Positions 11,377 to 40,737 of a stretch of DNA of 64,000 bases are shown here, one piece after another. Source of the stretch: a virus; IMG/VR virus record IMGVR_UViG_3300009376_000011, positions 3,433 to 67,432 of that record; one strand, 5' to 3'. The notes under the pieces were generated by a model. That model made no database searches. It was given only the letters and a program-made list of their open reading frames with translations, and was not told the DNA's origin. The position numbers were made by a program, and so were the translations under genes. Each line of letters opens with the position of its first letter. Position 1 is the first letter of the stretch.

Positions 11377-11389
11377 GGGGAGGAGTACC

Positions 11390-24144: not shown

Positions 24145-27100
24145 ATGAGTGATAAGCCTCTTGAGGTCAAAGGGCCGCAGGACTTAATCGACGTAATCCC
24201 GCAGGAGAGAATTACCGGCGATATTTTGCGTGGTCATGGACCGCGTAGAGGTGGGTTGGAACACCTGCTCAAATTCTGGCGACCGATTATGCGGAAGCCG
24301 GGTGGTTTTCGGCGGTGCATTGTCATTCTTGCGAATCATCCAGAGTTGTATCCGCTCCAACCGTTGTGCGCGTGGTTGCACCATGAAACAACTGGCAAGT
24401 GGCCGAATGAAGGCAACCATCACGGTGGTGGTGGGGCGGCGCGGGCAGCAGGCCGGGTGGCCCGTCGCGCTATCCCCGGCAAGCGTCGTCGCCGTCGTGG
24501 CAAAAGCGAAGACGGGGTGGAGATAGCAAGTTGGAGGGTGTACCGCCGAGTGGCCCGCATGGACGGAGGTATCACGACTCGTCCTATTGATGGGGATCAA
24601 AATGCTGTCGCCTATAAGGCGGCACGGTTTGTGCAGGGTCTGCAATCGGTTCCAATGCCGGGTTCGTTCGACTGGACTAAACAACCAATTGAGGTAAAGG
24701 GCCGTGGTCACGGTCGCCTTGGGCGGACGCTTTCAAGTATCGCTTCTTATTTTACACCGGGCGATATGAGCAAATATCGCAGTCCGATCCGCTCCGCCCT
24801 GTGGGGGGCTTTGTTCCCCGGCGGTGGAGGTATTGGACCGAGTGGTGGCATTGGTGGTGGTGGCGCTAGGCCGTCTATTGGCGGTGGGGCGCTGCGTTGT
24901 CCCACGGGGTACATCAACGGTGGCAGGTTCACTGATCCCAAGTTGAGCAACTGTGGTGGTTTGGTGTTTGACGTTCCGGCAAAGGGGCCGGGAGCGGTCA
25001 CATCAGGTGATGTTTCCAAGATGACTCGTCGTTTTGAAAGCATTACGGCAGAGGACGTTCCAGATGTGGTTCGTGATGTGGTTGTCAAGAAGCCTAAGGG
25101 CGATCCTTTCGCCGTTGTACGCGAAGCGGCGATTCGTCCTAATCGTGCAGGTAGCCCTGCCCGCCGCGAGTCTGTTGTAAATGATGTTGTTGATTTTGTT
25201 GGCAAGAATGTTGGAACCACTCGTTTGGTTCGGCGTGACGGTGTGGTGTATGAACCCACGCTGACTCCAGAAGAACTAGTGAAGATGAAGGATCATGACG
25301 CGATCAAGGGTGCCGTGTATGTGACTTCAAAGATCGGGAAGGGTGCAATCGCAGGAGACGAGATACGCCTATTGAGCAAGGGTGTTGAGGCTATTGAGTA
25401 TGCGTTCGGTCAGGGTTCTGTCCGGGTGGAACGCAAGACGGACATTCCGGTTGGGGTTGGAGCAAAGATGCGTACCCGCTGGGCGTCTATTTCTAGGGAT
25501 CCCGACATCATCATCAATCCGTTTGCCCATGTTGAAAAGTTCGTTCAAGAATTTCCAGAGTTTGTGGAAATCAAACCAAAGTTTGACGGTGTCAAAAAGC
25601 CGAACGAGCGCGTTGTCGTTACTTCTAGTGATGGTCAGAAGCGTGTGGTTTCAAGATGGATTCATCACATGTTTCTGTCACCTCGCGCTCCTCGTCGTCT
25701 GGCGGGCGTCAAGCCTTACAACATTGCAAAAGAATCTGGAACTAAAACTCTGCGTGAGCAACGGTTCAACCGTGAGCAGTATGCAGTGTTTTCTGTGGAG
25801 AAAAAGAATCTGGCGTTGAGGCCGGATCTTTCCGATCAGTTCGGAAAGCCGAGTTTGGCAGACCTTCGGATTAGCGACACCGATGGTATGAGCAGAGATT
25901 CGCTAGTTGATCTAAAGGCAGCCCGGTTTGTATTAGCCCAACTTGATGAAGATATGGCAGTCAAGGTGTTTGGTCGCCGTCGGATGCGTGGCGTGCGTCT
26001 GTCTCGCTTTGCCCGCCGGATTCCCAAGGTTGTTCCTTACAACCCACGGGCACGGGATGCTGATGGTGATGGTCTGGTTCAGGAAGGAACTATCTGGGAG
26101 CGACCGTCGGGAACTATTTTCCGTGGTTTGAAGGCTGGCGCTAGGAAACTGGCTGGTTCTGTTCAACTTGTTGATGGAAATGGCAAGAATGTTGATTACA
26201 AGCCGGGTGAAAACCAGCGTTCTCCGCTTCGGACTTCCCGCTTTGATCCTCTGAAGCGTCGTTTGGCGGGAGCGTCTGAACGTTTTGGTGGACGACGCGA
26301 ACAGGGCATTCGTCGCAGGGATCAGGAGTTGGATGCTACAGCCGACTTCACTGAGGTCGAATTGCGGCGTCAGGCACGAAAGGCACGCAGGCAGCGGGCA
26401 CTTGCAAGGATTAGACAGAGGGGGGCTGGTGTCCGTGAGCGTCGGACAGCGCGAATGGAGCGTGGCGCTGAGCGAGATGAGGCTGCCGCAGGGAGACATA
26501 CTGAACGGGCTAGGGAACTGACTAGTCAACGACGCGACCGTGACGAGTTCGATAGGTCACGGCGGGATATGCGCGGTAGGCAGCGTGCTGAACGAGAAGA
26601 ACTTGATCGGCGTTCTCCGCGTCGTGAACGCAGGACGCAGCGTCGTGATGAACGCCGTCGGAGGATGCAGGAGAGACTTACTGAATTTGGGGAGCGGAAC
26701 GAGGAGGCCATCCGTCGTCGTGACCGTGAGGAGGGGGCGAGGGTTGACTTCGGGAGGCGTCGTCCAAGTATTGCGGAGCGTGCTGCTGCCGCGGCTGAAC
26801 GCTTCCGTGAACGCAGAGAAGAAGGTATCCGTGCCGAAGATCGTCGTCGTGGCGCTAGGGCAGATTTTGGGAAGTTGGATCGGGAACGTGAGAGTCGTCG
26901 CAGGGATCGTCGCGGCCCAACGAGGAGGAGCGAGAGGACTCCGGGGGAGCAGCGCGGTCGGGCGGCTGGCGCAGCAGACAGGCTCAGGGAGCGTAACGAG
27001 GAAGCGATTCGTCGTCGGGATCGTGAACAAGGTGCGCGAGCCGACTTTGGCATTTTGGAACGCGAGCGTGAAGCCAGACGACAGCGACGCGCTGAGCGTG

Positions 27101-30100
27101 GCGCGCAGCGTGGCCGTGGTTTGGCAGAGGCAACTGAAAGGTTTAGGGAGCGGAACGAGGAAGCAATTCGTCGTAGGGACCGGCGAGAAGGAGCGCGAGC
27201 CGACTTCCAGATTTTGGAACGTGAACGTAAAGCCCGTGCGGATGCCCGTGTTAAGCGAGAATTGGATCGACAAGCGGTTCGTGATCAGCGTCGGGAACGG
27301 ATTCGTCGCCGGGTTGAAACGTTCGGAGAGCGCCAAGAAGCAGCGATCAGGCTGAGGGATCGGGAGGAAGGAGCGCGAGCCGATTTCACTGAGATCGAAT
27401 TGCGGCGCGAGATGCGGCGTCAACGGGTCCGTGATTTTGCCCGTCGGGTCAGAGAAATCAATGCTGATAGGACTCCTGAAACCCGCGAGGTGGGCAGGAA
27501 AGCGGCAAGGGCTAGGAACGACCGGTCGGCAGGGGTGTCTAGAAGGTTCGATGAAATCCGTGTTAGGCAGGAATCGTTGCGTGGGATGCCGAGTTCCGAT
27601 AGATACTACGAACCGGATGATGATCCAGAGTTCCAGCGTGACTTTGAGCGCACTTTGGAACGCTTCTATGTAGATATGCAAGATTACACGCTTGTAGATC
27701 TTGGCGACGCGCTTTCAAATGCTGGTAACCGTCAATTGGAGGAGGCTTTCGACTGGGAAGACCCGGAAGTTGACGCACGACTTGAGACGCCGATCAGGGA
27801 CTTTCCTGAAGATTGGAAAGCAACAATTAGGGGTATTGTCGAAAACTCCTTCTATGACGACCCCGAAGCGCTTATGGGTCAACGTCGGTCACGAAGAAAT
27901 ATGTTTGGGCAAACGCTCCAGAGTCTGGGGAGCGACAAGGAGCCTGTTATTAGTTGGACAGCGAGGATTGAGGAGATCGACGCTCTTATTACAGAGTTGA
28001 ACGATGTGTTCTTCGACAAGTATTGGGATTTGGATGCGGACGGGTACAACATTACGTCTGGCGTTTATATGGATAGCCGATTCGGGGATCGGATATCTCA
28101 GGGTGGCGGGAATGCAGTCGGGCGCAAATATGACGAATTGATTGCTGAACGTGAAGCACTTTTCGATAAGCGTTGGATGTTGACCGATGAGGAGGAAGCG
28201 AGGATTTATGAAATTAGTGGTGAAATCGAAGCGTTATATGCAGAGACAGACTGGATGGGCGTATCAGATGTACATCGTGAACGGTTTGAGGCGATACGAG
28301 CGAGGCTTGATGAACTAGATCGACCGATAGTGTTGGATAGAGGGATGATTCAGGGGATGCCCTCTGTCAATGAGATGGTTCGATCTGAAGAGATTTTTGA
28401 GAGGGCGAAGGAGCGGCGTGAACGTTTGAGGGACATTCGGAGACGAGTCAAAGCGGGCGAAGAAGTAGATCCAGCAGAAATATTTAATGAACCGGTTCGG
28501 GGTGTTCCCGTTGTCAACGAATGGCAGGAATCACTAGAGGACAGGATAAGTGGAATTTCTGCACAGGAGCGCGTGAAGGCTAGGCGTGAACGTTTGGAGG
28601 CCATTCGGGAACGTCGCATTGCGGAGGCAAAAGCCAGAGATGCAGACTTCGATCCAGATGATATTGATCCAGACGAATGGCATGACGAAGGCTCTCCGGC
28701 GGGTGGCATATTTGATTTGGATCAGCAGATTCGGGGGATGCCTTCTGTCGAAGAGATGGTTCGGGCTGAAGAGATGCATGAGAGGGCAATGGCGCGGCGT
28801 GAACGTTTGAGGGACATTCGGAAACGAAAGGAAGCGGAGGCTAGAGAAGTTAGGGATGCTGGTGTATCGCCTGCGCTTGTCGGTCAGCCGATACAGAACT
28901 TGGTGCCGACGCCAAACGATTCGGATCTTCCCGGTGAAGATGTTCTGATTCGGTATCGGCAGGGCGATGAGGTCAAGATTGGAAACCGCTGGGGCACGGT
29001 GGTTCGCAGCGATCCGGGTGGCGGTGGTCGCGGACCCTTCTATGTAGTCCAATTTGAAGATGGACATAGCGAATCTTTCCCCATGTATCGGGTGACGGGG
29101 GATTCGGACTTGAGGCGCAAGCGTCGTGCTGAAGGAGTTGAACGACACTTTTACCCAGATGGGGCGATACCAGTTGAAGATTTCACTTCACAGGGACTAA
29201 TTGACGAAATGGCGATGATTAAGGAAAGGTGGGATGGCGCAGATGTCATCCCAGTCGAAGACATGATTCGTTTCGACAACCTGCAAATTGCGTGGCATGA
29301 GAAGAATCCCGGCAAGGATTTAGGATCGGTTCGCAATAGTCGGGGTTATCCCGTTGATGTTGAGTCTGTTGAATATGGTGATGGAACGAGGGCTGATTTC
29401 GGTAGCAGCGGTGTAGGTGGCGACCTGAACTCCCAAATGGTTCGGGGGATGCCTTCGGTAGAACGAATCTTGAGTGCGCCTCCCGACAGGTTCGATCCAG
29501 AGATTGATATTGATCCTGACACATACCACGATGATCCGCTTCGTCCGGGTCGGGATGAGCGGATTGTTAGGAGTTTGTCTGCTGCGGTAGATAAGTGGTT
29601 GGGCGAAGATTATTTTGATGCTTTTGAAGATCATGAACTTGAAAAAGCAATGAGTGATGCCATATTGCTGATTAGGGCAAAGAATGGTGGAGATCTCAAG
29701 TTTGCTGACTTCATTGAACCTAGTGCAAATTGGCCGGAAGGCTTCCTACATGCCGAACTTGGGGCAGAGGAAATGTTCACTAGGGAAGGAATTGAAAAGG
29801 GATTGCTGGCTGGCGTGTATGACGGCGACATTCCTGAGGGAGTTTTGCTTGAACTGCAAAATGATCATGGTTGGAATCGTGATCCGGTTGAACGAGTTTC
29901 GGCCATAGTTGAGGCCATGTTGTTTCATCGTGAAGATATGGACAACCCGGAAGTTTTCCAAGAGAACTTGACGGCGATGTTGGACAATCTTTCGGTATGG
30001 GACGGCATGATGAACCGTTACGAACTAAACAAGTTGAATAATAGGGATCGTGATAGAGAGCCGTGGCATGGTCGTCAACGCAAGATTCTTGTGAAGTTGA

Positions 30101-32685
30101 CTCAACGATTTTTGAGTGATCGGAAGTCGGAAAACGAACGGCGACGCAAGGCTCTTACCGCACCGTTGGAAGATGCGTCGATGGAAAGAAGGTTTGATCC
30201 GGTTCCGGGTGAAGGCGAAGTAGATGTGCCCGAAGATGAACAAACGTTCTTGCAGAAGATTGTTGACAGGATTTGGAACAAGCGGCTCAAGGTTGTGAAA
30301 AAGGAATATGAGCGTCGCGGCAAGCCGCCGGAGACGATGCCTCGTTCCTTTGAAGAGTTGGGTATCAATGTAGATGAGATTTTGGCTAGGGGTAGTACGA
30401 CTCCAGAAGAAGATGAAATTATCAAGAAGTGGGTTATTTCAGCGTTTTCGTTGGGTGATGCCAATCAGTTTGCTGGAACAGATAGTTTCATGTGGCGGCT
30501 GCGAAACCAGTGGGGGAATGATGATGATGACATACCGAATATAACTATTCAGCAGACTGGGGGACAGATCACTGCCAGTTTTAATGCTTCTATCGAATTT
30601 AAAGCCCCTAGAGACATTGAGGATCGCAATGGTCAAACAGTAAAGGGCGGCGAATGGGTTGCGAGCGGTAACACTGATCGGGTTATTACGATCAACAGAA
30701 GCAGGGGAGGTAATCCGCCAAAGATTCATGTTAAGAATAGTGAAATGTTTGTTGATACATACTCAACATACGGTGTTAGAGGAAAAGGTTTCGCAACCTT
30801 CTATAACAGCAATACTTGGATACATGTCAACCAGTTGGGTGGACCTGATTCATATATTGGTGTTACTGCTGCTGATGATGGAAAGGTGGTTTGGGGTATA
30901 CAGGGATTCAATGACCCTACTGTGGTTAAAACAGCGATGTCTAACATCCTCAAAGAATTGATTGCCTATGAGACGGATCGTAAGCCCGGTTTGATTCGCA
31001 ATGATCAAATGCACGAAGACTTGAAGAGGCTTTACAACATTCATTCCGCCAATGAAAACGACTCTCCTGTCACTCTTCAAATGATTCATCATGTTTTACG
31101 AGGGGGCGGCAAACATCCTTGGGAAGACATTGCACATACTGATGATCGTCCTTCTGGTATTAGCACAGATGTGTTGTCTAGAGACAAGGATATTGATGCT
31201 ATTGAAAAAGATCTATCCAAGAAGATTAACAAAGACGATCCCCTAGAAGCCGGGATGCTTAAAAACGCTTATGGCAATTGGTGGGCATCGAATGGACTCT
31301 TCGGCGGTGGAGATTTAGGTGTCGGGTCGGACGATCCTATCGGCAAGATTATGGCGGAGGCTGCTGATGAAATTAGGGGTGGTCCGCCGGATGCTGATGT
31401 TGATACGCCGGATTCTCCACGACGACGGGATCGGGCAGCGGAGCGTAGGGCGAGAGGCAGAGGAGAGGAAGGACCAGCAGAAGTTCCTTTGTATAGGGGA
31501 TTGAGGAGGGGGCGGTCGAACTTGACGATTGGCACTTCAGACGAACTGGGTCGTTCTGGGTTGGTTTCAACTTCGATGGAAGATAGCGACATCAAAACGC
31601 CCGCAGCCGCTGCTGAACATATTCGTAATGGAGGAAATATCTCTGATGTTCCTCGCGAGTTGATTCTGGAAGCAGCGTTGAAAAATTCCAGCGGAGACGA
31701 AAAAGACGAGTCAAAACTTTTCAGACTGGTGACCGTTGACGAAGATGGCAATCCCGGCGCGAACGTCAGTGGTGGCACTTTTGGTACATCGTATGTTTTC
31801 CTTAAGAGGGATCCAGACGGCAGGTCCGATAGTGAGCCGGGGACGGAACAAGGATTTATTATCAAAAGCCCGGACTATGCATTTGAAACGCCCGGAAGCG
31901 ACGGGGGAGGCATTGCAAATGTCAGCCAATACAACGAGATTATTGGACGACAGATAAGTCAATTGCTTGGAGATCCGACCGGTGGCGTGATGGTAGATGG
32001 AGAAGACCCACGGGGTAATCCTTATATCGTTATGGAGTTCAATAATGTAACTGCGGATATCGGACTTGAAATCCCTCTAGCACATATGAGTTTTGAGGAG
32101 CGCAACGAACCGGAAATGTTGAAGTCTCGCCTTAGGGCTTTACTGATCGGTTACAGCATGGGTCTGGGAGATAGGCACGGCGGCAACTTGTTGGTTGGTC
32201 AGAGCGAATACACGGGCGGAACAAACCAGACAGGCGTGACCAATATCGACTTCCAGCGGGCTTGGGGAGCGACAACAGATCTTCGTGGTTACATAGATGG
32301 GCATATGGCTGAAGGCAGCGGTTTCCCCGGATTTGGATTGCTTAGTGAATTGCGACAGGCGGTTAGGGAGGGCAAGTTGAGCGAATCAGAGTTGGGGGGA
32401 GTAGTTCAGGAAGTCCATGATCAGATGAGAAACATCAAAGATGTTCACTTGGAAAGAATCTTTGGGGATCTTCCCGAAGTCCACGCTTTGGGTGGGCGAG
32501 ACATGTCAACTATGGGTGCTGCTCGTCGTGGGCCGGACGATGTGGAGACTCACGCGACGAACGTTAGCAACCATCTGGAGATGACATTAGCCACCCTTTC
32601 CGGTGGAGAAATGCTAGTGATGGAACTTTTGGAAAATGATGAAGATGAAGAACCATGGTATGGGGAAGGGCAGCGGACGTTCTAA
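24145..32685 (+). CDS. Giant (2846 aa) multidomain head/ejection protein with Arg-rich repeats, GNAT-like and C-terminal HipA/PI3K-like kinase domains
   Basis: Uninterrupted ORF with SD GGGAG; RGKGFA...W..QGF; GGTFG...IIKS...NEII...DRHGGN...IDF. Confidence 0.75.
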   Translation: MSDKPLEVKGPQDLIDVIPQERITGDILRGHGPRRGGLEHLLKFWRPIMRKPGGFRRCIVILANHPELYPLQPLCAWLHHETTGKWPNEGNHHGGGGAARAAGRVARRAIPGKRRRRRGKSEDGVEIASWRVYRRVARMDGGITTRPIDGDQNAVAYKAARFVQGLQSVPMPGSFDWTKQPIEVKGRGHGRLGRTLSSIASYFTPGDMSKYRSPIRSALWGALFPGGGGIGPSGGIGGGGARPSIGGGALRCPTGYINGGRFTDPKLSNCGGLVFDVPAKGPGAVTSGDVSKMTRRFESITAEDVPDVVRDVVVKKPKGDPFAVVREAAIRPNRAGSPARRESVVNDVVDFVGKNVGTTRLVRRDGVVYEPTLTPEELVKMKDHDAIKGAVYVTSKIGKGAIAGDEIRLLSKGVEAIEYAFGQGSVRVERKTDIPVGVGAKMRTRWASISRDPDIIINPFAHVEKFVQEFPEFVEIKPKFDGVKKPNERVVVTSSDGQKRVVSRWIHHMFLSPRAPRRLAGVKPYNIAKESGTKTLREQRFNREQYAVFSVEKKNLALRPDLSDQFGKPSLADLRISDTDGMSRDSLVDLKAARFVLAQLDEDMAVKVFGRRRMRGVRLSRFARRIPKVVPYNPRARDADGDGLVQEGTIWERPSGTIFRGLKAGARKLAGSVQLVDGNGKNVDYKPGENQRSPLRTSRFDPLKRRLAGASERFGGRREQGIRRRDQELDATADFTEVELRRQARKARRQRALARIRQRGAGVRERRTARMERGAERDEAAAGRHTERARELTSQRRDRDEFDRSRRDMRGRQRAEREELDRRSPRRERRTQRRDERRRRMQERLTEFGERNEEAIRRRDREEGARVDFGRRRPSIAERAAAAAERFRERREEGIRAEDRRRGARADFGKLDRERESRRRDRRGPTRRSERTPGEQRGRAAGAADRLRERNEEAIRRRDREQGARADFGILEREREARRQRRAERGAQRGRGLAEATERFRERNEEAIRRRDRREGARADFQILERERKARADARVKRELDRQAVRDQRRERIRRRVETFGERQEAAIRLRDREEGARADFTEIELRREMRRQRVRDFARRVREINADRTPETREVGRKAARARNDRSAGVSRRFDEIRVRQESLRGMPSSDRYYEPDDDPEFQRDFERTLERFYVDMQDYTLVDLGDALSNAGNRQLEEAFDWEDPEVDARLETPIRDFPEDWKATIRGIVENSFYDDPEALMGQRRSRRNMFGQTLQSLGSDKEPVISWTARIEEIDALITELNDVFFDKYWDLDADGYNITSGVYMDSRFGDRISQGGGNAVGRKYDELIAEREALFDKRWMLTDEEEARIYEISGEIEALYAETDWMGVSDVHRERFEAIRARLDELDRPIVLDRGMIQGMPSVNEMVRSEEIFERAKERRERLRDIRRRVKAGEEVDPAEIFNEPVRGVPVVNEWQESLEDRISGISAQERVKARRERLEAIRERRIAEAKARDADFDPDDIDPDEWHDEGSPAGGIFDLDQQIRGMPSVEEMVRAEEMHERAMARRERLRDIRKRKEAEAREVRDAGVSPALVGQPIQNLVPTPNDSDLPGEDVLIRYRQGDEVKIGNRWGTVVRSDPGGGGRGPFYVVQFEDGHSESFPMYRVTGDSDLRRKRRAEGVERHFYPDGAIPVEDFTSQGLIDEMAMIKERWDGADVIPVEDMIRFDNLQIAWHEKNPGKDLGSVRNSRGYPVDVESVEYGDGTRADFGSSGVGGDLNSQMVRGMPSVERILSAPPDRFDPEIDIDPDTYHDDPLRPGRDERIVRSLSAAVDKWLGEDYFDAFEDHELEKAMSDAILLIRAKNGGDLKFADFIEPSANWPEGFLHAELGAEEMFTREGIEKGLLAGVYDGDIPEGVLLELQNDHGWNRDPVERVSAIVEAMLFHREDMDNPEVFQENLTAMLDNLSVWDGMMNRYELNKLNNRDRDREPWHGRQRKILVKLTQRFLSDRKSENERRRKALTAPLEDASMERRFDPVPGEGEVDVPEDEQTFLQKIVDRIWNKRLKVVKKEYERRGKPPETMPRSFEELGINVDEILARGSTTPEEDEIIKKWVISAFSLGDANQFAGTDSFMWRLRNQWGNDDDDIPNITIQQTGGQITASFNASIEFKAPRDIEDRNGQTVKGGEWVASGNTDRVITINRSRGGNPPKIHVKNSEMFVDTYSTYGVRGKGFATFYNSNTWIHVNQLGGPDSYIGVTAADDGKVVWGIQGFNDPTVVKTAMSNILKELIAYETDRKPGLIRNDQMHEDLKRLYNIHSANENDSPVTLQMIHHVLRGGGKHPWEDIAHTDDRPSGISTDVLSRDKDIDAIEKDLSKKINKDDPLEAGMLKNAYGNWWASNGLFGGGDLGVGSDDPIGKIMAEAADEIRGGPPDADVDTPDSPRRRDRAAERRARGRGEEGPAEVPLYRGLRRGRSNLTIGTSDELGRSGLVSTSMEDSDIKTPAAAAEHIRNGGNISDVPRELILEAALKNSSGDEKDESKLFRLVTVDEDGNPGANVSGGTFGTSYVFLKRDPDGRSDSEPGTEQGFIIKSPDYAFETPGSDGGGIANVSQYNEIIGRQISQLLGDPTGGVMVDGEDPRGNPYIVMEFNNVTADIGLEIPLAHMSFEERNEPEMLKSRLRALLIGYSMGLGDRHGGNLLVGQSEYTGGTNQTGVTNIDFQRAWGATTDLRGYIDGHMAEGSGFPGFGLLSELRQAVREGKLSESELGGVVQEVHDQMRNIKDVHLERIFGDLPEVHALGGRDMSTMGAARRGPDDVETHATNVSNHLEMTLATLSGGEMLVMELLENDEDEEPWYGEGQRTF

Positions 32686-32966
32686 TGGCTAAATTTTTAA
32701 TCACTCCTTACCAACATTCAGTTAAGCCTGCGATTATTGTTGAGAACAACGATAATCATTTTGATATTGGCGGGAATGAACGAATGGCAGCACAACTAGT
32801 TGAAGCCATGGATAGTTATGACGTTGATGAAGAAAAAAGATTGGCTGCTTTGATTCATGGTTCTACGGGCATCATGAGGTCGCATAAACTAGGAGACACA
32901 GATAATCCAGATGATAGAAAGATACTCAACGAGTATAAAAAAAAGTGGATGAATAGCGATGGGTAA
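32685..32966 (+). CDS. Small protein coupled to the kinase-bearing giant gene (candidate immunity/partner)
   Basis: TAATG overlap; start MAKFLIT; 93 aa. Confidence 0.65.
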   Translation: MAKFLITPYQHSVKPAIIVENNDNHFDIGGNERMAAQLVEAMDSYDVDEEKRLAALIHGSTGIMRSHKLGDTDNPDDRKILNEYKKKWMNSDG

Positions 32967-33204
32967 TGTAAGTGCAGAGACGATTGGCAAGATGCAGAAC
33001 TACATAGAGGCGCGCAATACGCCGGAGCGGTTGGGCATTGTCGAAATGGTGTCTCAGTATGTTCTATCCGATCTTCCTCCAGAAGAAGATAAAGAAGAGG
33101 CTTTGATTCTGTCGCGCTATCACCTGTCTACGGATAGGGGAACAGAAGATTTGAAAGCGTTGTATCCGGATGCTGTCAGTTGGATGGAGGAAGGCAATTC
33201 ATGA
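32959..33204 (+). CDS. Small helical protein (candidate immunity/partner)
   Basis: 81 aa, overlaps both neighbours. Confidence 0.65.
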   Translation: MGNVSAETIGKMQNYIEARNTPERLGIVEMVSQYVLSDLPPEEDKEEALILSRYHLSTDRGTEDLKALYPDAVSWMEEGNS

Positions 33205-36200
33205 GATATCCGGAATACCGTCTGAACGAGGTCGGTTTTCGCGCTCGTTTATATGATGTAAACCATATCCCTCTTGAAAAAGGGATAGGGAGCATAATCA
33301 GACGCGTTCCGAAGGTGGTTCCGTATGACAACGATGCCCGTGATGCTGATGGCGATGGTCTAGTTCAAGAGGGGACAATCTGGGAGCGTCCTGCTGGTAC
33401 CCGTTGGGTGAGCAAGTTGGGTAGCGCTCTTTCTTCTGGCTTGCGTGCCATTCCGGGTAACTCCAAGATTGTGGATAAAGACGGCAACGATGTTGATTAC
33501 AAGCCCGGAGATAAAGCACAGGGTGGACGGGCGAAACTTCGTGGTCTGTTGGCTCGTCGCCGGTTGCGTCGGGCAGGTAAACGTCGGCGTCGTGCAGCGG
33601 AAAGGCGCGAAGAGGACAGGGAGCGTAAGGCTCCTGAAGAATACGACAAGTTAATTGAAACTTTGGAAAACGCCGCTAATGCTGCAAGTCAAGAGCGGCT
33701 GATCGAAGCAGAGAAGCAGCGCGGCGATGCGCCGATGGACGGACCTTTCCGTTCATTCTGGGACACGTTCATGGAAGCGTTCACGGGCATGAAGGGGGGG
33801 AGGGAGGATCGCAATTCCCGTGACAAGGCGCGTGGTAGGAGCGCTATTCGCAAGGCTCTTCAGATGGAGGGAAACCGGCGGACGGCTGGCGACGAGAACG
33901 GTAATGAGCCTGATCATGACAGGGAAAAGGAGTTCGATGAGGAGGCATTAGACGGTAAGGGTGTGATGCCTTCTGCGATTGAAGAGCATCACAGGAAACT
34001 TAGAGAGGATCCTGAGTATCGCAAGCGGTGGAATCGTGCGTTGCGTGAGGGCAAGGTAGATCAGTTTATTGAGAAGGAAGGTTTGAGGCCGATTCCCGAT
34101 GGCGGGGATCGCGATCCCGACCGACCCCGACCCCGAATTGATCCCAAGCCACCAACGGATGCTCCAGAGGCCGGGAAGCCGTTGACTGATTTGACCGACG
34201 ACGAGTTACAGGCTCGGATTGAGGCATTGCAAGACATCAATGATGACATGTCTCTGGATGATTTGTCACCGGCACATCAGGCGGAGTTGGATGCGCTGTA
34301 TGAGGAGCGTAATAACCGTTGGCTGCGGGGCGAGGGTCCGCGACCCCGCCGCCCAGAGCCGGATGATCCAGAGGCAGATGTTGAACCGGGGTTTGAATTA
34401 CCCGATGAGGTAATCGAAAGCATTGAACATTACAGGGATACCGTACTGCCAGAATTGAGTGATCAAGACTTGGCTCAAGAACTTGCTGAACTGCGAGAAG
34501 CGCTGAACGCTGATGATTTGGAGGACAGGTTCCCAAGAAATGATGGGCCTGAACGGTTTGCTTTGGCGTTGCAGGAGCATCGTCGTCGTCTTGTTCAGCA
34601 AAGGGAAGAGCGGAACAGCCCGGAAGCGATGATCGCCCTCGCTGACGCTGTATCTGAAGAGGATTTAGACCAAGCGGTTGGGGGCGTACTGCCCCTACAT
34701 CTTTACCCGCGGGACATGGTGGACAACCCACGTTCGGAAGAGGCGGTGAAGGCTTTCAATGAGAGGATTCGTGAGCGTCTTGCGGAAAGGGATGAGGCTA
34801 GGGCGGCACGGGGTCTTCGTTGGAGTGACGAACGAATAACAGGTGCGTCCGATGAGGAATTGCAACGTCGTCGTGCAGAACTGGTTGCTTTGGATCCAGT
34901 TGGCAACGATTCGGCAATTAGGACAGAACTTGAACGGCTGGAGAGCGAACGGATTAGGCGTGAAGTATTAGCGGGGATGCAGAGAGATCTAGATGAATAT
35001 GAAGAATCTGACGACGATCTTCCGGGCGATGCGTTCTTCGATAACGAGGGTTGGATTGAAGGCGACTTCGCTTGGGACGATGATGCTATTGACGCCGCGA
35101 TCAATGTTGCTCTTGCTACTGACGATACGAGGACTATAGAAGGAATAGAACGCTCGCTTCAAAGGTATAAGTACGATATGACTACGAGCGAGTGGCGTGG
35201 CGCTAAGGGTCGTCGGCATCGGGAAATTCAAGCGATTTTGGATCGTAGGCGTGAGGAGAGGGAGCGTCCGACTAGGACGGTGCCGCCAAGGGACGTTGAT
35301 CCCTATGGAGATGACGAATTCGGGTTTATGAGCGATGAAGATCTTCAACGCCATATAGATGATCTTGAGAATATTGAGGATCGCTCCCCGGATCAGGAGG
35401 CGCGTTTAGAGGCTTTGGGTAATGAGTATGACGAACGGTTTGGAACAGAAGCAGATGTTGAAGACATGGAGCGCGAGGAGCGGTTGGAATGGTACGAGAC
35501 TGATCCTGCAAGTCTTTCCGATGAGGAACTTCAAACTGAAATCAATGAACTGAATTCTGAATCGGATTTGGACGACGATGCAATGGCGTGGTTGACCAAA
35601 CTTTCTGAGGAGGATGACAGGCGGCAGAAAGCCCGAAATGAACAAGAGGATCAAGAAGCGGCAGAAGCGGAAGCGGCGGAGGAAGCCCGTCAGGCTGAAC
35701 TAATTGAAGAGCAGCGAGATCCACGGGATATGACTCCTGAGGAAATGGCTGAAGAAATCAACGCCATTAACGAGGCTGATGAAGATGAGTTAAATGAGCA
35801 TTGGGGTTCGTCTGAAGCGGCGATGGATCGTTACAACGTTTTGCAGGATGCGCTTAGTGAGCGCGAAGAGCAGGATGCTAGAGATCGTGATCAGGAAGAG
35901 ATTGAGGATCGTATTGCTGAGCAGGATGATCCTACGGAGATGCGGGATGAGGACATCGGTGAAGAGATGTCTGAACTGTTTGATATTTCCGAAGATGAAG
36001 ATTACAACGAGGAAGCGCGGGCACAGGCTAGGCAGCGATGGGAGTTGTTGGCAGCCGAACAGGACAGGCGTGAACGGGAAAGAGAACAGGATGAACGGGA
36101 TCTGTCGGATGCGTTAGACGAGCGGCAGGCTGAAGAGGATGCTGAGGAGGATCGCATCCGTGAAGCGGAAGAACGAGAAGCCGAAGAGGCAGCCGAAGCC

Positions 36201-39200
36201 GAAGCAGCCCGAGAAGCGGAGATAGAAGCCGAAGAACGTCAGGTTCGTGTCGATGAACATGAGAACAATCCTCCGAGCAGTCTTTCTGAAGAAGATCTTG
36301 CTAATGAGATAGCCGAACTTAGTGATTCGGAAATCATGGATGATCTTGATAGGGATCGTTTGAATGATCTTGAAGCCGAAGTTGAACGTCGTATGGAAGC
36401 GGCGGCTAGGCGTGAAGATTCCAATAGGGGTGAACGTAGTAGAAGCCTGAGGTTCCGCGATGATGAAAGTCTTCAGGAAGAACTAGACGAGTTGATGGAG
36501 GATCCTGACGCCGATGAGGCTCGTATGGATGCGCTTGAAGCCGAATTGGATCGTCGGGAAACGCAACGGAGTCGGCGCACAAGGGAACGTACCCGTGAAC
36601 GCACAGACGAGTTGGAAGCGGCGGAACAGCGCGAGTATGAAGGAGAGGGAGAAGATGACGAAGAAATTCTCCTGCCGGAAGTAGAGCCTGATTATTCCGA
36701 CGAGGACGAAGAGGATGCTGGAGGCCCAACGGATGGGGATTTGATTGATCCTTACGCGGAGATGGAAAGGGATATGACGACTCCGCCTCCGGACGAAGAA
36801 GATGAAGAAGATGATATTGATGAGTCTGGCGCGAGGCCAATTCCGGAAGAGGACGAGACACCGGACCGAACCGGTATGCCCGATGAAGGTGGTTCGGGTC
36901 CGAATGGCGAGTGGACGGATGCGGATGAGGCGGCAGATCCAGCCGATGATCGTTTCGCTGAGTTGGAAGACAAACTGGATAGTTTGGATTGGAACATACA
37001 TGCAGCGATGGCTGCCGGTGATGACGAACAAGTTTTGGGCTACTTGCTCAGACGGGAAGAATTGTTAGAGGACGACGGCGGTTTGATCGGAACTCACCGT
37101 GAAATTATGAGGCATGAGCATGATGCTGAAATCTTGCGGTATCTGACCGAACATGAATATAAGGATGGAGCGAAGGCGAGGGAAGACGGGGGTCCATCCC
37201 ATGAGCATTATGAAAATAATCAAAAGTATTTGAATGTGTACGCGGAGGCCCAGAAACGTGGCTTGTTAGATCCCGATCCTGATCCGGTTGATGATTCGCC
37301 GGAGGCGGATCTTCCTGACCCTTTAGAGGGTAAGACCCCGGAGGTCGCTGAGGCAGAGGAAGCCATAAGGCGGGATTGGGACGGTTATTCTCCAGAAGAG
37401 AAAGAGTATTTAGCCCTTCATTTCGTAGATACTGAAGTAGCGAAACTTGAACAAGGATTGATTGACGGGTACCGCGGCAAGTCTGCTGTAACTGTGCCTC
37501 CACTTCCGGATGATGCTACGCCGGAAGAGAGGGAGATCTCTGCCTTGCAGCAGTCGTACCTGAATGCGAAGGAAGCCACGTTTCAGTTGTTGGCACGAAG
37601 GGATATGTCTGGCACGTTGGGGGGTATAGATCATTCCGTTCAAGAGCAACATGCGTTTACCGGCGATATTTCGGCTAGACAAATTCTTGCTGCCCATATT
37701 TTCGACAAGTTAGATCAAGCCGATTTGAGCAGAGTAATAGACGCACTTAATCCAAACACAAACATGCTGGGTAATGTTCCTTACGATCCCAATTGGTCAA
37801 GGATGGACTTTTATGATGACTTCGACAATCGGGACATTCCTTCGGGAATAGTAGCGTTGGCAGTTAAACGTATGCAGGACAAGATGCAAGCAGATGGAAC
37901 AGTGGTTACTGATGAACAGGTAGCCGAAGCAATGTCAGAACTAGAAGTAAATTTTGCGGCTCCGCTTGGGGAGGCGATGAGAGCCGAATTGGATCGTCAG
38001 ATAAAACGAATGGGTAGTGAAGAATTAGGCGGTACGGCTGATCCTTTCCTTCTGAATTTGATACTGCCGATGGGTGGTCCTCCTACCGGTATTGATGCCA
38101 TGAATACGCGAAATTCATTCATGGACGATCTCTGGTCGCCGGATGGGTACGGTCGTATGCATAGTGCTGACTTGTTGCGGATAACTATAGGCGCTCCGAA
38201 TGTTGGTAAGGGTATGGGCGAAATTGGTCGTCTCATAGTTGAAGATCTTGATGTTGGTTTTGTTCCGCAGAATATGCTCCATAATCCCGATTTGCTTATT
38301 CAGGGTATAATTCAGGCTTACGCTAGGCAACTGAGTAGCGGCGCTATTGACGAAGCGACTTTTGTTAATAATCTTAAGAGCCTTCCTGCTGACTTGGCAA
38401 AGGGTTACAGGAAGCACGCGACAGCGGGATTAGCAGCATCCCGATCAGGTCCGGGCGCAAGACTCCATAGGGATATGGCGACAGCACTTTTTGGGAAGAT
38501 TGGAGCAGCCGACGAAGCATCCGCTAGAGAAATGTTTGATGCTGGAGTCAAGTTAGCGCTGTTTAAGTCGGCTGAAGAGGGAGATCTCAGACATTTGGCG
38601 TTGGATGGAGTTATTGATGTTCAAATGCCGTTGACTGAGACAGAAGTCGTTGCTGGCTTGATCAGAAAGTTCCGGGTAATTACAGATGTGCCCGTATCGT
38701 TCGGCACCGCAGCGGACGGAGGATCGTTAAAATGGGAGCCTCCTATAACAAGTCGGGGACGAAAGTATCAATTGAATCCTTCAGAACAGCAGGCAGCAGC
38801 CAATGAGATTGAGGCAGCCGCTGCCCTGTTGTTGCCAGATGATTGGATTGACCTTAGCAATTCATCCGGCAGAGTTGTTCTGTATAAGCAAGATCTGGAC
38901 CGTGCTTCGTTTGGTAGTAAGACAACACTTGGCCTTGAGGCTGCCATGCCTGAAGGTGTAGGCACTAGTGACGGCGCTATAGATATCACTAGAAAGGATT
39001 TCACTATTACAGATGGTGGTCATGAAATAGTCCACAGGATTCAGTCCGTAAACGTATTCTTGCTGTTGCAGGATGATGCGTTTGCACGGCGAAGGCAAAC
39101 TCCTGCTACTGAGGCAGAAGCAAGATCTCCGAAGTTTAGAAAGCGAACCTTCAATACAATTCTAGGTAGGACTGGTATGGGTAGTGAGTCTGCTATTGAA

Positions 39201-39446
39201 GATCACTTTTCTTTGCCTTACATGGGTAAAGCCTATAAGTCACGGCGTGGTGATCTAAGAATAGAGGTAAGTTCTACAGGTGTAGAACTTTTGCTTGGAG
39301 GGAAGGTTGGTGCCGGACACCGTCCCAAAGATCAGCAGAGAGATGCTAATGGAATACCTCAGGAGTATACGCTAGCGGATGCCTTAGCGGAAGATCGAAG
39401 CAGTTCTTGGATCGGTCACGTTTTGGCAATGCTGGTTGGCGTTTAA
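33201..39446 (+). CDS. Giant (about 2081 aa) acidic-repeat head/ejection protein with C-terminal HExxH metallopeptidase-like domain
   Basis: ATGA-coupled start MRYPEY with SD GGAGG; HEIVH (39021-39035)...DHF..PYMGKAY...EVSSTGVE. Confidence 0.75.
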   Translation: MRYPEYRLNEVGFRARLYDVNHIPLEKGIGSIIRRVPKVVPYDNDARDADGDGLVQEGTIWERPAGTRWVSKLGSALSSGLRAIPGNSKIVDKDGNDVDYKPGDKAQGGRAKLRGLLARRRLRRAGKRRRRAAERREEDRERKAPEEYDKLIETLENAANAASQERLIEAEKQRGDAPMDGPFRSFWDTFMEAFTGMKGGREDRNSRDKARGRSAIRKALQMEGNRRTAGDENGNEPDHDREKEFDEEALDGKGVMPSAIEEHHRKLREDPEYRKRWNRALREGKVDQFIEKEGLRPIPDGGDRDPDRPRPRIDPKPPTDAPEAGKPLTDLTDDELQARIEALQDINDDMSLDDLSPAHQAELDALYEERNNRWLRGEGPRPRRPEPDDPEADVEPGFELPDEVIESIEHYRDTVLPELSDQDLAQELAELREALNADDLEDRFPRNDGPERFALALQEHRRRLVQQREERNSPEAMIALADAVSEEDLDQAVGGVLPLHLYPRDMVDNPRSEEAVKAFNERIRERLAERDEARAARGLRWSDERITGASDEELQRRRAELVALDPVGNDSAIRTELERLESERIRREVLAGMQRDLDEYEESDDDLPGDAFFDNEGWIEGDFAWDDDAIDAAINVALATDDTRTIEGIERSLQRYKYDMTTSEWRGAKGRRHREIQAILDRRREERERPTRTVPPRDVDPYGDDEFGFMSDEDLQRHIDDLENIEDRSPDQEARLEALGNEYDERFGTEADVEDMEREERLEWYETDPASLSDEELQTEINELNSESDLDDDAMAWLTKLSEEDDRRQKARNEQEDQEAAEAEAAEEARQAELIEEQRDPRDMTPEEMAEEINAINEADEDELNEHWGSSEAAMDRYNVLQDALSEREEQDARDRDQEEIEDRIAEQDDPTEMRDEDIGEEMSELFDISEDEDYNEEARAQARQRWELLAAEQDRREREREQDERDLSDALDERQAEEDAEEDRIREAEEREAEEAAEAEAAREAEIEAEERQVRVDEHENNPPSSLSEEDLANEIAELSDSEIMDDLDRDRLNDLEAEVERRMEAAARREDSNRGERSRSLRFRDDESLQEELDELMEDPDADEARMDALEAELDRRETQRSRRTRERTRERTDELEAAEQREYEGEGEDDEEILLPEVEPDYSDEDEEDAGGPTDGDLIDPYAEMERDMTTPPPDEEDEEDDIDESGARPIPEEDETPDRTGMPDEGGSGPNGEWTDADEAADPADDRFAELEDKLDSLDWNIHAAMAAGDDEQVLGYLLRREELLEDDGGLIGTHREIMRHEHDAEILRYLTEHEYKDGAKAREDGGPSHEHYENNQKYLNVYAEAQKRGLLDPDPDPVDDSPEADLPDPLEGKTPEVAEAEEAIRRDWDGYSPEEKEYLALHFVDTEVAKLEQGLIDGYRGKSAVTVPPLPDDATPEEREISALQQSYLNAKEATFQLLARRDMSGTLGGIDHSVQEQHAFTGDISARQILAAHIFDKLDQADLSRVIDALNPNTNMLGNVPYDPNWSRMDFYDDFDNRDIPSGIVALAVKRMQDKMQADGTVVTDEQVAEAMSELEVNFAAPLGEAMRAELDRQIKRMGSEELGGTADPFLLNLILPMGGPPTGIDAMNTRNSFMDDLWSPDGYGRMHSADLLRITIGAPNVGKGMGEIGRLIVEDLDVGFVPQNMLHNPDLLIQGIIQAYARQLSSGAIDEATFVNNLKSLPADLAKGYRKHATAGLAASRSGPGARLHRDMATALFGKIGAADEASAREMFDAGVKLALFKSAEEGDLRHLALDGVIDVQMPLTETEVVAGLIRKFRVITDVPVSFGTAADGGSLKWEPPITSRGRKYQLNPSEQQAAANEIEAAAALLLPDDWIDLSNSSGRVVLYKQDLDRASFGSKTTLGLEAAMPEGVGTSDGAIDITRKDFTITDGGHEIVHRIQSVNVFLLLQDDAFARRRQTPATEAEARSPKFRKRTFNTILGRTGMGSESAIEDHFSLPYMGKAYKSRRGDLRIEVSSTGVELLLGGKVGAGHRPKDQQRDANGIPQEYTLADALAEDRSSSWIGHVLAMLVGV

Positions 39447-39787
39447 TGGATAACTTCTTCGCCGGGACCGTCGCCTGTTTCGGCGTCATCAAATAAATCT
39501 GTATCAATGTTTAGGACTTCGCAGAATTCGCTGAGATAAGCGTCGATGGTACGAAAGATGCGTATCTCTGGTGGCTCATCGAAAGAGGGCTTATGTCCAC
39601 TACCGGGTGGGACACCGACATCGCCCCATGTCATGACAACGGAAGAAAGCGCTTCCAACTGTGTTGATGCGTGATTGGGATCTTCAGACCAGCCAGTTTC
39701 TTCCGTATAGGTGTAGTCAAAAGCGCCCCCTGTAGTGGCTTCTGCCGAATACCAGCCTTCTTTGAATGTTCCGGTGATGTGGATCAT
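39443..39787 (-). CDS. Acidic 114-aa protein convergent on the peptidase gene (candidate immunity)
   Basis: Stop codons overlap (TTAA); has its own promoter; appears leaderless. Confidence 0.7.
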   Translation of the reverse strand: MIHITGTFKEGWYSAEATTGGAFDYTYTEETGWSEDPNHASTQLEALSSVVMTWGDVGVPPGSGHKPSFDEPPEIRIFRTIDAYLSEFCEVLNIDTDLFDDAETGDGPGEEVIH

Positions 39788-39793
39788 GCTCTC

Positions 39794-39822
39794 ATCTTAT
39801 GTTAGTTGTTGTTTCTACGCAA
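39794..39822 (-). promoter_or_regulatory. sigmaA-type promoter, leaderless start
   Basis: TTGCGT-17-TAAGAT, 6 nt before the ATG at 39787. Confidence 0.6.
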
Positions 39823-39850
39823 CGATTCGATGGATGTTACAGTAGTGCCT

Positions 39851-40603
39851 ATGGCTAAAGATCCTATCGCAGATACTGTCCTTCCATCGAAGAGGCAAGC
39901 ACTCAAGGTCGGAAAGATGTTGGGATGTACCGGCGCTCACCGCAAGGGCGACGGTTGGGGCTTGTGCGAATCAGACGAATTACTGAGGATTCTGATCAAG
40001 AAGGGTTCTGCCGCCTACCGCGAGGCACGCGACGGGAAAGAGAAGAAGTCTTGTTGTCGTTCCTGCGAGATGAAGGCCAACGCTGCGGACGAAAAACTGA
40101 TCTTTCCAACACGGGAAGAAGCCGAAGCAGCAGCCCTCAACATGGGCTGTTCGGGGGCACACCAGCATGGGATCGGTCGATGGATGCCGTGTGAGACAAT
40201 GGAAGAATTCAGTGCCGCCCGTAACTCTCCGAACAAGACACGCCTTGTCATAGACGCTCCCACGATGAAACGGCGTAAGCGGATCATTGACTTGCCGAAT
40301 GTCCGGCAGAGTAATTGGGAACCCTTAGGGGGCAGGGGTATCCGTGGTGTAGAGACATTGGCTGGTGGGGGGCTAGTCGCGTCTAAGCGCCTCTATACAA
40401 CTGGCAAGCGTCGCGAGTATGCTAAGCAAGGTATAGCCATGAAGGATGGTTCTTACCCGATTCGTGATGTCGGTGATTTGCGAAATGCTATACAAGCCTT
40501 CGGTAGAGCAAAAAATAAACCTGCTGCGAAAAAACATATCAAAAAACGCGCTAGGGCATTGGGTAGGACTGATCTACTTCCGGACACTTGGAAAGATTCT
40601 TGA
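39851..40603 (+). CDS. Basic head-associated protein: two CxGAH..G.W..C repeats (DUF3721-like) plus DGSYPI domain
   Basis: LGCTGAHRKGDGWGLC and EAEAAALNMGCSGAHQHGIGRWMPC; C-terminal DGSYPIRDVGDL. Start MAKDP preferred. Confidence 0.7.
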   Translation: MAKDPIADTVLPSKRQALKVGKMLGCTGAHRKGDGWGLCESDELLRILIKKGSAAYREARDGKEKKSCCRSCEMKANAADEKLIFPTREEAEAAALNMGCSGAHQHGIGRWMPCETMEEFSAARNSPNKTRLVIDAPTMKRRKRIIDLPNVRQSNWEPLGGRGIRGVETLAGGGLVASKRLYTTGKRREYAKQGIAMKDGSYPIRDVGDLRNAIQAFGRAKNKPAAKKHIKKRARALGRTDLLPDTWKDS

Positions 40604-40737
40604 GCAACTACCTATAGCAGTTGCAATGATCTTGTAATAACGTAATCTAAACTAACTACTGTTCAAATCGGTTGTGGTGCTTACCTAAGCCGACTGACAT
40701 CAAAACCATTCAACTATGTCGAACAGGAGTTACGACT

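Follow-up and report, generated by a model that had tools for sequence, protein, structure and literature searches.

The stretch of DNA analyzed here, referred to as the window, comprises 64,000 nucleotides (nt; positions 3,433 to 67,432) of the IMG/VR virus record IMGVR_UViG_3300009376_000011, a 67.4-kb record with a CheckV completeness estimate of 45%. Between the genes for the prohead protease and the major capsid protein, the window contains two giant open reading frames (ORFs), giant1 and giant2, and the subject of this report is a block of ~75 amino acids (aa) that the two encoded proteins share. Giant1 (24145-32685, plus strand) encodes 2846 aa, and giant2 (33180/33201-39446, plus strand) encodes 2088 aa when read from a TTG codon at 33180; its true start is probably the ATG at 33201, because homologues begin with MRYPE. 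The interval is flanked by the gene for an S78 prohead serine protease that has a long extension at its C terminus (20899-22245, plus strand; Pfam Peptidase_S78, E 5.9e-14) and by that for an HK97-type major capsid protein with an N-terminal propeptide (40672-42051, plus strand; Pfam Phage_capsid, E 1.8e-43 from aa 183).

Two giants with one common block had been described at this position in the original prediction, and the protein comparison bears this out: in BLASTP, giant1 aa 619-689 and giant2 aa 36-111 align with 42 of 76 identities (E 5e-21). All other high-scoring segment pairs have E values of at least 1.8, and the block is therefore the sole piece common to both giants. The first copy spans giant1 aa 615-695 (25987-26229, plus strand; RRIPKVVPYNPRARDADGDGLVQEGTIWERP...VDYKPGE) and matches the block hidden Markov model (HMM) with an independent E value of 1e-37; the second spans giant2 aa 36-114 in the TTG numbering (33285-33521, plus strand), with an independent E value of 4.6e-46. 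Among six-frame ORFs of at least 50 aa, the HMM matches exactly giant1 and giant2 in the window, and likewise in the 67-kb record. Over 71 aligned residues, 42 are identical, the same codon is used for just 19 of these 42, and the nucleotide identity is 61%. Because the codons have diverged to this extent, the block is conserved at the protein level, as had been proposed.

The block has relatives in many other viral sequences. A word-based search returned six relatives, and a first scan of viral contigs yielded 23 loci. The giant1/giant2 pair, with one block in each protein, is kept in eight of these 23 loci as judged with the HMM over six-frame ORFs, and in other architectures a locus encodes between one and three block proteins, or a single protein has two blocks. 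With a 23-row block alignment (A2) as the query against 1.84 billion representatives, 875 cluster representatives match at E ≤ 1e-3, 315 at E ≤ 1e-10, and 14 at E ≤ 1e-30. In a second viral scan, for which N-terminal-type copies served as the query, 255 of 306 candidate stretches were confirmed. Among contigs from prokaryote genomes, five of nine candidate loci are true, and all five are metagenome-assembled genome contigs with phage-like giants. The other four were dropped as chance matches, with QEGTIWE alone inside ORFs of ~280 aa, which by eye we take to resemble a transketolase cofactor motif. The block proteins belong to one lineage of uncultured aquatic myoviruses that have an HK97-fold capsid, an S78 prohead protease, and WhiB. 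A literature search found no description of the block, although sequence motifs are not searchable in text and this is accordingly weak evidence for unpublished status.

Across 23 diverse copies, residues D25, D27, D29, Q33, E34, G35, T36, and R40 are invariant, and G30 is present in most copies, with Met or Gln in a few. At the core of the block, a predicted DxDxDG loop of the calcium type precedes QEGTxWERP, after which comes a short hairpin that ends in DYKPG. The AlphaFold2 (AF2) model of the giant1 copy is a loop-rich mini-domain with two short strands (predicted local distance difference test [pLDDT] score 85.7, predicted template modeling score 0.70). D-x-D-x-D-G is a classic calcium-binding linear motif, and the block also conforms to the wider pattern D-x-[DN]-x-D-G; calcium binding by the block is likely. 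The Excalibur domain has the related motif DxDxDGxxCE; the block differs in having Q-E where Excalibur has C-E, and the surrounding 60 aa are specific to the block family. Searches for a known relative returned no counterpart. The giant1 copy matches no Pfam family at E ≤ 1, and the giant2 copy matches just TraI-like_C (E 0.066; 13.6 bits versus a 28-bit cut-off). A sequence search of the PDB gave a best E value of 0.37, Foldseek searches with the model gave best E values of 3.2 (PDB) and 0.59 (BFVD), and VIA-align of the model against 48,161 chains gave no match with Z ≥ 2.

The possibility that the similarity is trivial, either because acidic calcium loops are generic or because one genome recently underwent a duplication, has to be weighed against these data. 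Loops of the Dx[DN]xDG type bind calcium in at least twelve families according to the accessible portion of PMC3123361, DxDxDG is a common linear motif, and the four bacterial-genome matches illustrate that QEGTIWE can arise by chance. Against triviality stand the conservation of ~75 aa on both sides of the loop, the diverged codons, the hundreds of distinct proteins with the block, the confident and compact AF2 model, and the calcium-binding Pfam models (EF-hand, Excalibur, TSP3, and dockerin), none of which matches the block at E ≤ 1. A merely generic calcium-binding loop, which the original prediction had named as a possible undoing of its proposal, is thus not what the extended conservation describes, and we consider a trivial origin extremely improbable. 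The block is, very probably, an autonomous domain of ~75 aa that heads modular effector proteins with swapped enzymes.

The position of the block within these proteins is restricted. The first block begins within 40 aa of the N terminus in 118 of 155 proteins, typically as MA..RWGGLRxEPYxPDAxDADGDGIVQEGTAWERP, and 27 of the 155 proteins contain two or more blocks. Blocks that are internal or preceded by a leader have a phi-E-phi-K-[A/S/G] motif 8-20 aa upstream (for example, IETKA, VEVKA, and IEYKA), and the corresponding sequences in the window are MAVKV in giant1 and PLEKG in giant2. The Lys site that had been noticed before both window copies generalizes to a recurrent phi-E-phi-K-A motif across the family. 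The strict form E.K occurs upstream of 27 of 75 internal blocks versus 8.9% of random windows, and a looser Lys pattern upstream of 51 of 72 versus 9.9%; both enrichments are inflated, because the pattern was defined after the data had been viewed. Multi-block proteins encoded in replication contexts, such as P0009, keep the motif before their internal blocks. In giant1 homologues, phi-[ED]-phi-K-A sites are found at approximately aa 6 and 155 in eight of eight proteins and at ~185, ~590, and ~605 in some. Three Lys-type sites are also present in the first 145 aa of a head-module giant without a block, which is encoded by the related phage genome G007.

Similar motifs occur in two proteins of the head itself. 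The C-terminal tail of the prohead protease contains VEVK|AGR (~nt 21844-21858), of which E316, K318, and G320 are invariant in five of five homologues, including one that is just 38% identical. In the capsid protein, the sequence ..EVK|DMYSALPTG contains a K143-D144 pair that is invariant in six of six homologues (Lys codon at ~nt 41161-41163), and this site lies ~20 aa before the Pfam capsid domain, where the propeptide junction is expected. In HK97, gp5 is cut after Lys103. The invariance of similar motifs in the protease tail and at the capsid propeptide junction is the reason for reading the Lys motif as a cleavage site, and it is probably where the S78 prohead protease cuts during maturation. 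An alternative that makes use of the same observations is that the block is an exosite that docks the S78 protease to the adjacent Lys motif, with N-terminal-only copies riding into the prohead on the protease. The spacing of 8-20 aa between motif and block and the presence of the same motif type in the protease's own tail would agree with such docking, whereas at 105 of 180 core sites there is no upstream sequence that could be cleaved, and the motif is also present in proteins that lack a block, namely the capsid protein and the block-less giants. We regard the exosite as improbable.

A layout of constant part plus variable enzyme had been expected by analogy with known phage toxins, and it is found in both giant families, in which the N termini are fixed and the C termini swapped. 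Searching phage and virome proteins with the block model, as had been proposed, revealed diverse C-terminal enzyme domains behind the block. A Pfam scan of 100 of the 147 newly listed representatives (P0009-P0155) assigned at least one family to 38 of the 100, with families often combined: RNase_T (11 proteins), ADPrib_exo_Tox (10), DUF3626 (10), PI3_PI4_kinase (7), Zeta_toxin (4), DUF7178 (4), GNAT (2), and Peptidase_Mx (1). Relatives from the first scan add Zeta_toxin and, more weakly, domains that resemble DRAT (E 0.005-0.015) and Tpt1/KptA (E 0.0013). Proteins with more than one effector domain include Zeta_toxin plus ADP-ribosyltransferase (ART), RNase_T plus ART plus Peptidase_Mx, and RNase_T plus DUF3626. 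In one lineage (P0008, P0049), the kinase is carried by giant2 rather than giant1, and sequence comparison indicates that the module was transferred there from giant1 to giant2.

Two further observations concern these enzymes. At locus L016, a 301-aa block ORF (9974-10879) overlaps by ~30 nt an 867-aa ORF (10848-13451) with RNase_T and PolyA_pol domains. Fused block and RNase_T proteins exist (P0017, P0022, P0055), and the overlapping pair may stem from a frameshift, from a gene that has been split, or from faulty assembly. When the block protein with Zeta_toxin and ART domains (P0071) was used in tblastn, the match was confined to its zeta region, aa 226-393 (cyanophage P-SS2 and Bacteroides phages). 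In P-SS2 (GQ334450.1, 19028-19543), the zeta-toxin-like region is part of a gene whose annotation reads minor head protein/head morphogenesis and is 32% identical to the zeta domain of the block protein (E 1e-15), which suggests that a zeta-type enzyme is also present within a head-morphogenesis gene of this cultured cyanophage.

When searched as whole proteins, neither window giant matches a Pfam or PHROGs family, and their architectures were resolved by parts. The N-terminal part of giant1 (aa 1-607; 24145-25965, plus strand) contains several phi-[ED]-phi-K-A sites and ends with MAVK (aa 604-607). It matches two separate head genes of G007, p207 (81% identity over 72 aa) and p645 (28% over 343 aa), and giant1 is for this reason understood as a conserved head-module protein fused to a block-headed effector. 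The block is followed by a charged spacer that varies between homologues (26230-30138, plus strand); it is R/E-rich over aa ~700-1100 (31-36% K+R, 18-26% D+E), continues with acidic segments, and includes three GMPSV-type repeats at aa 1404, 1531, and 1768. A middle domain (aa 1999-2340; 30139-31164, plus strand) is present in all giant1 homologues, with 25-37% identity among six, and a PDB profile search found no relative of it. Overall, giant1 homologues have aa 1 to ~737 (55-92% identity) and the middle domain in common and differ in their spacers and in the presence of the kinase.

The C-terminal domain of giant1 (31423-32682, plus strand; GLGDRHGGN...IDF) is PI3K/PI4K-like by Pfam and by profile comparison. 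The Pfam PI3_PI4_kinase match of giant1 itself (E 0.0012, 19.3 bits) is below the gathering cut-off of 27.1 bits, a threshold that is exceeded by the relatives P0066 (40.2), P0042 (34.4), and P0059 (28.2). Residues K148, E172, D250, H252, N255, and D276 are invariant in 10 homologues and correspond to the DRHxxN catalytic loop, the DFG-type Asp, the ATP-binding Lys, and the helix-C Glu of PF00454. A kinase profile matches PI4KB (4.2e-05), PI3K, mTOR, and DNA-PKcs, with E values ranging from 4e-5 to 4e-4. Judged by these profiles and residues, the giant1 C terminus is a genuine kinase-fold domain. An ESM Atlas search with the C-terminal half of giant1 gave matches of up to 0.89 without a common Pfam family (LepB_N at 0.77), which amount to no more than leads.

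Giant2 begins with a leader (MRYPEYRLNEVGFRARLYDVNHIPLEK; 33201-33284, plus strand) that ends in the Lys motif PLEK (nt 33270-33281) and is kept in P0006, P0007, P0024, and P0025; the analogous leader of P0008 ends in EFEVK. In giant2-like proteins, just the first ~290 aa are conserved. The block is followed by a basic stretch and then by a long, extremely acidic spacer (33522-38096, plus strand). Over aa 700-1300 (35277-37079), this spacer consists of 34-45% D+E, with a net charge of -21 to -32 per 100 aa, a composition that could serve as a counter-ion or DNA-mimic segment inside the head. The spacers of both giants had been described as long repeats; Tandem Repeats Finder detects no DNA tandem repeats (0), and the spacers are instead charged low-complexity protein. 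The basic stretch noted after both window blocks is part of a modest general tendency, with a median net charge of +2 in the next 50 aa of 179 blocks versus -2 in random windows. The C-terminal domain of giant2 (38097-39443, plus strand) contains a GHExxHRxQ motif (HEIVH at ~nt 39021-39035) that is invariant in five homologues, and it may be a zincin-type metallopeptidase. This domain has no Pfam match, no PDB match by sequence or profile, and no usable ESM Atlas match, and its AF2 model has a pLDDT of 37. The expectation that the two giants end in different enzymes is thus supported for the kinase of giant1; for giant2, the evidence for an enzyme is the GHExxHRxQ motif.

The arrangement of motif, block, and enzyme suggests a route by which these proteins could reach the host, of which cleavage, packaging, and delivery are steps that we infer. 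The giants would enter the prohead, where the S78 protease would cut them at the Lys motif. Each mature effector fragment would then start with the block, like the proteins that are naturally headed by it, and the block would keep this fragment within the head, guide its exit along with the DNA, or both, such that the delivered enzymes could act on the host when infection starts. A role of the block as a head-loading tag, the function originally predicted for it, is plausible, and we place the chance of the full packaging-and-processing function, from prohead entry through cleavage at the Lys site and retention to delivery with the DNA, somewhat short of even. A more specific version, in which the block and the upstream phi-E-phi-K|A site form a portable cargo module for HK97-type heads and the calcium-stabilized block, placed at the new N terminus by S78 cleavage at the Lys site, holds the effector within the capsid or leads it through portal and tail upon infection, is offered as a distinctly tentative idea. 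If it were true, any enzyme placed behind the block would become an injected early weapon, and nature would have supplied, in the block and its site, a "load and inject" tag that can be transferred and whose protease recognition motif is defined, used in hundreds of combinations with kinases, ADP-ribosyltransferases, and nucleases.

The genomic location of the block genes bears directly on this packaging function. Loci were taken from two motif-based scans, and neighbors within 5 kb were labeled by BLAST to reference proteins, with labels verified by Pfam in representative loci. Among 82 distinct block ORFs, 42 have head-module neighbors, five lie between neck and sheath genes, 32 are in replication or nucleotide-metabolism neighborhoods, and three are in unlabeled neighborhoods; these counts are not independent events, because the scans include related contigs. 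The predicted head-module location accordingly stands for 47 of the 82, if the five neck/tail copies are included among those by virion genes, and fails for the 32 that lie elsewhere. In the typical replication order, a block gene follows genes for ThyX, primase-helicase, a GerE-like protein, and WhiB; in the window, the slot after primase-WhiB is empty of a block gene. The phages with block genes in replication contexts are of the window lineage (capsid 66-69% and protease domain 70-72% identical), and they also have 15-20 kb between their protease and capsid genes.

Several findings weigh against packaging as the function of the block. The 32 block ORFs outside virion modules adjoin ThyX, primase-helicase, GerE-like, methylase, SNF2, or WhiB genes. 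In G007, which is 98% complete, the single block gene is more than 50 kb from the head module, and the interval that corresponds to that of the giants encodes a protease, p541, p207, p645, two proteins of 2041 and 1416 aa, and a DUF3721 protein, all of them lacking a block; the block is therefore not required by head-module giants. Both G007 giants, of 2041 and 1416 aa, are kinase-like. The principal evidence on this side is that block genes also occur outside head modules and that some head-module giants do without the block. In addition, a tblastn search of INPHARED cultured phages with the block found none, the Glu of the motif is not conserved at the capsid junction (EVK, SQK, NVK, and GQK), the Lys-motif enrichments are overstated for the reason given above, and the Lys motif could be a binding motif instead of a cleavage site. 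The genes for T4 alt and internal proteins lie outside the T4 head gene cluster, and by analogy with T4 Alt, which is packaged and injected, a replication-module location does not exclude packaging.

The observations on location are those that an alternative function would accommodate, namely that the block is a packaging-independent N-terminal accessory domain of host-takeover enzymes, acting as a calcium-dependent folding or regulatory switch or as an adaptor to a host hub such as RNA polymerase or the ribosome. Under this explanation, the head-module giants merely mark a place of effector insertion, and the existence of block-less head-module giants, the 32 of 82 block genes in replication or nucleotide-metabolism neighborhoods, and the sole, distant block gene of G007 would be expected, as would the invariant DxDxDG core, in view of the twelve or more families that bind calcium with this motif (PMC3123361, accessible portion). 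An accessory domain leaves unexplained the strict N-terminal placement (118 of 155), the occurrence of internal copies after a motif common to the protease tail and the capsid propeptide junction, and the fusion of DUF3721 both to block proteins and to the S78 prohead protease in relatives; 47 of the 82 copies in virion modules also speak against it. We consider the accessory domain a doubtful, if substantial, alternative to the packaging function.

The closest cultured capsid relative, Gordonia phage Chidiebere, was inspected at the corresponding position. The block HMM finds nothing below E 1 in its head region (NC_071005.1, L039 9181-26714). Enzyme genes annotated as an RNA ligase, a VIP2-like ADP-ribosyltransferase toxin, and a 971-aa helix-turn-helix protein lie between its portal and capsid genes, all without a block. 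From such gene orders, it seems that effectors are generally inserted into the head module across the wider group.

The small genes behind the giants had been predicted to be coupled partners. Behind giant1, a same-strand pair is indeed present: ORF a (~93 aa; 32685-32966, alternative start 32655, plus strand) is coupled to the giant1 stop, and ORF b (81 aa; 32959-33204, plus strand) overlaps the giant2 start. Behind giant2 there is just a putative minus-strand ORF of 114 aa (39443-39787), and coupling does not hold there. Its predicted product is acidic, and it occupies the 360 nt that separate giant2 from the DUF3721 gene; at the equivalent position of the relative G001, a same-strand 102-aa ORF is coupled to a kinase-ending giant2. 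All six giant1-kinase loci that were compared (L003, L008, L012, L014, L027, and the window) have ORF a, which is absent from two related loci with a kinase-less giant1 (L009, L015). ORF b is 55-65% identical in all tandem loci (L008, L009, L012, L015) whatever the C termini, and because it is kept regardless of them, it is not immunity-like. In all 14 kinase-ending block proteins with downstream DNA, a same-strand ORF of 88-116 aa comes next. These ORFs form four BLAST clusters, and the idea of one conserved post-kinase partner family was dropped, as hhalign gives a probability of 0.5% between the two largest. A kinase partner (an inhibitor, chaperone, or immunity protein) among the post-kinase ORFs is possible but weakly supported.

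DUF3721 is found in several contexts near the block. In the window, a DUF3721 protein is encoded directly 5' of the capsid gene (39806-40603, plus strand; Pfam DUF3721, E 1.9e-17). In relatives, this short module is on the S78 protease in one case, precedes the block at the N-terminal side in three proteins, and accompanies DUF5872 in a further head-module protein (L016 7281-8543; L017 301-2559; L018 6658-8823; L025 14304-17048; L114 17712-19901). In these fusions, DUF3721 behaves like another mobile module of prohead-associated proteins; a literature search on DUF3721 found nothing. A second module is common to the C-terminal region of the DUF3721 protein (aa 191-262; 40376-40591) and p547 (aa 448-516; 23596-23802), with 39% identity (E 8.6e-11). 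It comprises ~70 aa with the motif DGS[FY]PI..DL..A[IV].A....K.HI..RA..L.RTD..P..W, and p541 of G007, the p547 homologue, is 59% identical to the DUF3721 protein over 80 aa. This shared tail could be capsid- or scaffold-binding. The two block-less giants of G007 (L114; 6217-12339 and 12688-16935) open with yet another module, GARA[LI][WF]DPxLGPSGG[WY]RCPxGSQFGGYITDRFGRGCGG, after Lys-motif sites. Giant1 aa ~248-275 (GGGALRCPTGYINGGRFTDPKLSNCGG, ~24880-24970) resembles this module by eye only, with no BLAST match at E ≤ 1e-4.

The remaining genes of the window place the giants in a myovirus genome. Upstream of the protease gene are a terminase gene (17058-18362, minus strand) and a gene for a portal protein fused to a MuF-like domain (18584-20809, plus strand; Pfam Phage_portal 3e-50), which has no block; the fusion of MuF to the portal, as originally read from the sequence, is supported by a Phage_Mu_F match at aa 649-736 (7.5e-07). 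Between protease and giant1 lies the gene for p547, an acidic 547-aa head-module protein (22255-23898, plus strand) with homologues in tandem-type loci; it is kept upstream of giant1 in relatives and may be scaffold-like. Beyond the capsid gene, a class II ribonucleotide reductase gene (minus strand) is followed by genes for adaptor, sheath, tube, and tape measure proteins, on the basis of which the phage is assigned as a myovirus. The left part of the window encodes primase-helicase, WhiB, SNF2, SSB, Rad52, and a PD-(D/E)XK nuclease, the WhiB-family gene (Pfam 1.3e-17) being right behind the primase-helicase gene (window 2011-4002). The closest cultured capsid relatives are those of Brevibacterium and Gordonia phages (45-48% identity), and a DNA megablast of 24145-42051 against INPHARED gave no match. 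The WhiB gene and these capsid relatives hint at an actinobacterial host.

Among known packaged effectors, the closest parallel is with polyvalent proteins (Iyer, Burroughs, Anand, de Souza, and Aravind 2017, PMC5512222). In the accessible text of that paper, portal-terminase phages encode these multidomain proteins of very large size, in many cases amid virion genes; they combine ADP-ribosyltransferases, peptidases, nucleases, and similar domains, commonly have a C-terminal zincin-like peptidase, and are predicted to be packaged and injected. Similar to polyvalent proteins, the block giants are flanked by terminase, portal plus MuF, S78 protease, and capsid genes, and giant2 ends in an HExxH domain. 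The main differences are that the giants are united by one small N-terminal domain and an upstream Lys motif, that a PI3K/PI4K-like kinase is a recurrent effector, and that long charged spacers make up most of the window giants. Each window giant has one recognizable catalytic domain (the kinase and the HExxH motif, respectively), and relatives carry two or more effector domains. The layout of constant part plus variable enzyme holds, and the block giants are best filed with polyvalent proteins, as effectors of this type that are probably packaged. In its accessible portions, the main text of PMC5512222 does not mention "calcium," "PI3K," or "zeta toxin," that of PMC9503650 does not mention "N-terminal domain," and no block-like domain was seen in the same portions of these two Aravind-group papers. 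Both sources treat ADP-ribosyltransferases and polyvalent proteins as predicted or known to be packaged in heads, with T4 Alt packaged and injected, and PMC9503650 describes MuF-effector fusions.

The layout also resembles that of MuF polymorphic toxins, in which an N-terminal part associated with the virion stays constant while the toxin at the C terminus varies, and a small gene frequently lies downstream. MuF polymorphic toxins were reportedly described in temperate phages by Jamet et al. in 2017. Unlike in those toxins, neither giant has a Phage_Mu_F domain in Pfam, MuF is instead on the portal, and of the pair of small downstream genes only one varies with the C-terminal domain. The fusion of a head protein in giant1 follows the logic of a MuF-toxin fusion with a different carrier.

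With respect to processing, the accessible parts of PMC10052503 and PMC12991175 describe prohead proteases (T4 gp21 and those of phiKZ/SPN3US) that process internal head proteins at a short motif, long propeptides with several sites, and ejection into the host; the SPN3US ejection proteins lose N-terminal propeptides to the prohead protease. These enzymes cut after Glu (I/LxE; A/S/G-x-E), whereas the candidate site here ends in Lys and the protease is of the S78 family (PMC10052503, PMC12991175, same portions). In T4 the targeting peptide is removed, whereas the ~75-aa block lies downstream of the candidate site and would stay on the mature fragment; the block does not fit the description of a T4-type capsid targeting sequence, a short N-terminal peptide removed at I/LxE. 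The Dar system of P1, as presented in the accessible text of PMC12810830, includes the ~2000-aa DarB, which is packaged in a myovirus head with helpers and co-ejected with the DNA, and the prohead protease Pro trims the DarA N terminus. DarB is a methyltransferase-helicase, whereas the effectors here are kinases or ADP-ribosyltransferases and are not known to require helpers. In comparison with these packaged effectors, the N-terminal domain, its strict placement, the candidate S78 Lys site, the recurrent PI3K/PI4K-like kinase, and the two insertion slots appear to be new.

Phage proteins that are packaged and injected decide the first minutes of infection. To our knowledge, how such proteins are recognized, processed, and loaded is largely obscure outside T4, P1, N4, and the phiKZ group. 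The family reported here, hitherto unannotated and represented by 875 clusters, marks diverse toxin-like enzymes of uncultured aquatic phages and puts forward a specific motif as the candidate site of cleavage by an S78 prohead protease, and the block could serve as a key with which to look for injected effectors among virome sequences. Should the block turn out not to be a tag, the family would still document a PI3K/PI4K-like kinase that recurs in phages and illustrate the movement of effector modules between head-module and replication-module slots. If the tag function is true, the block would provide a handle to load cargo into HK97-type capsids.

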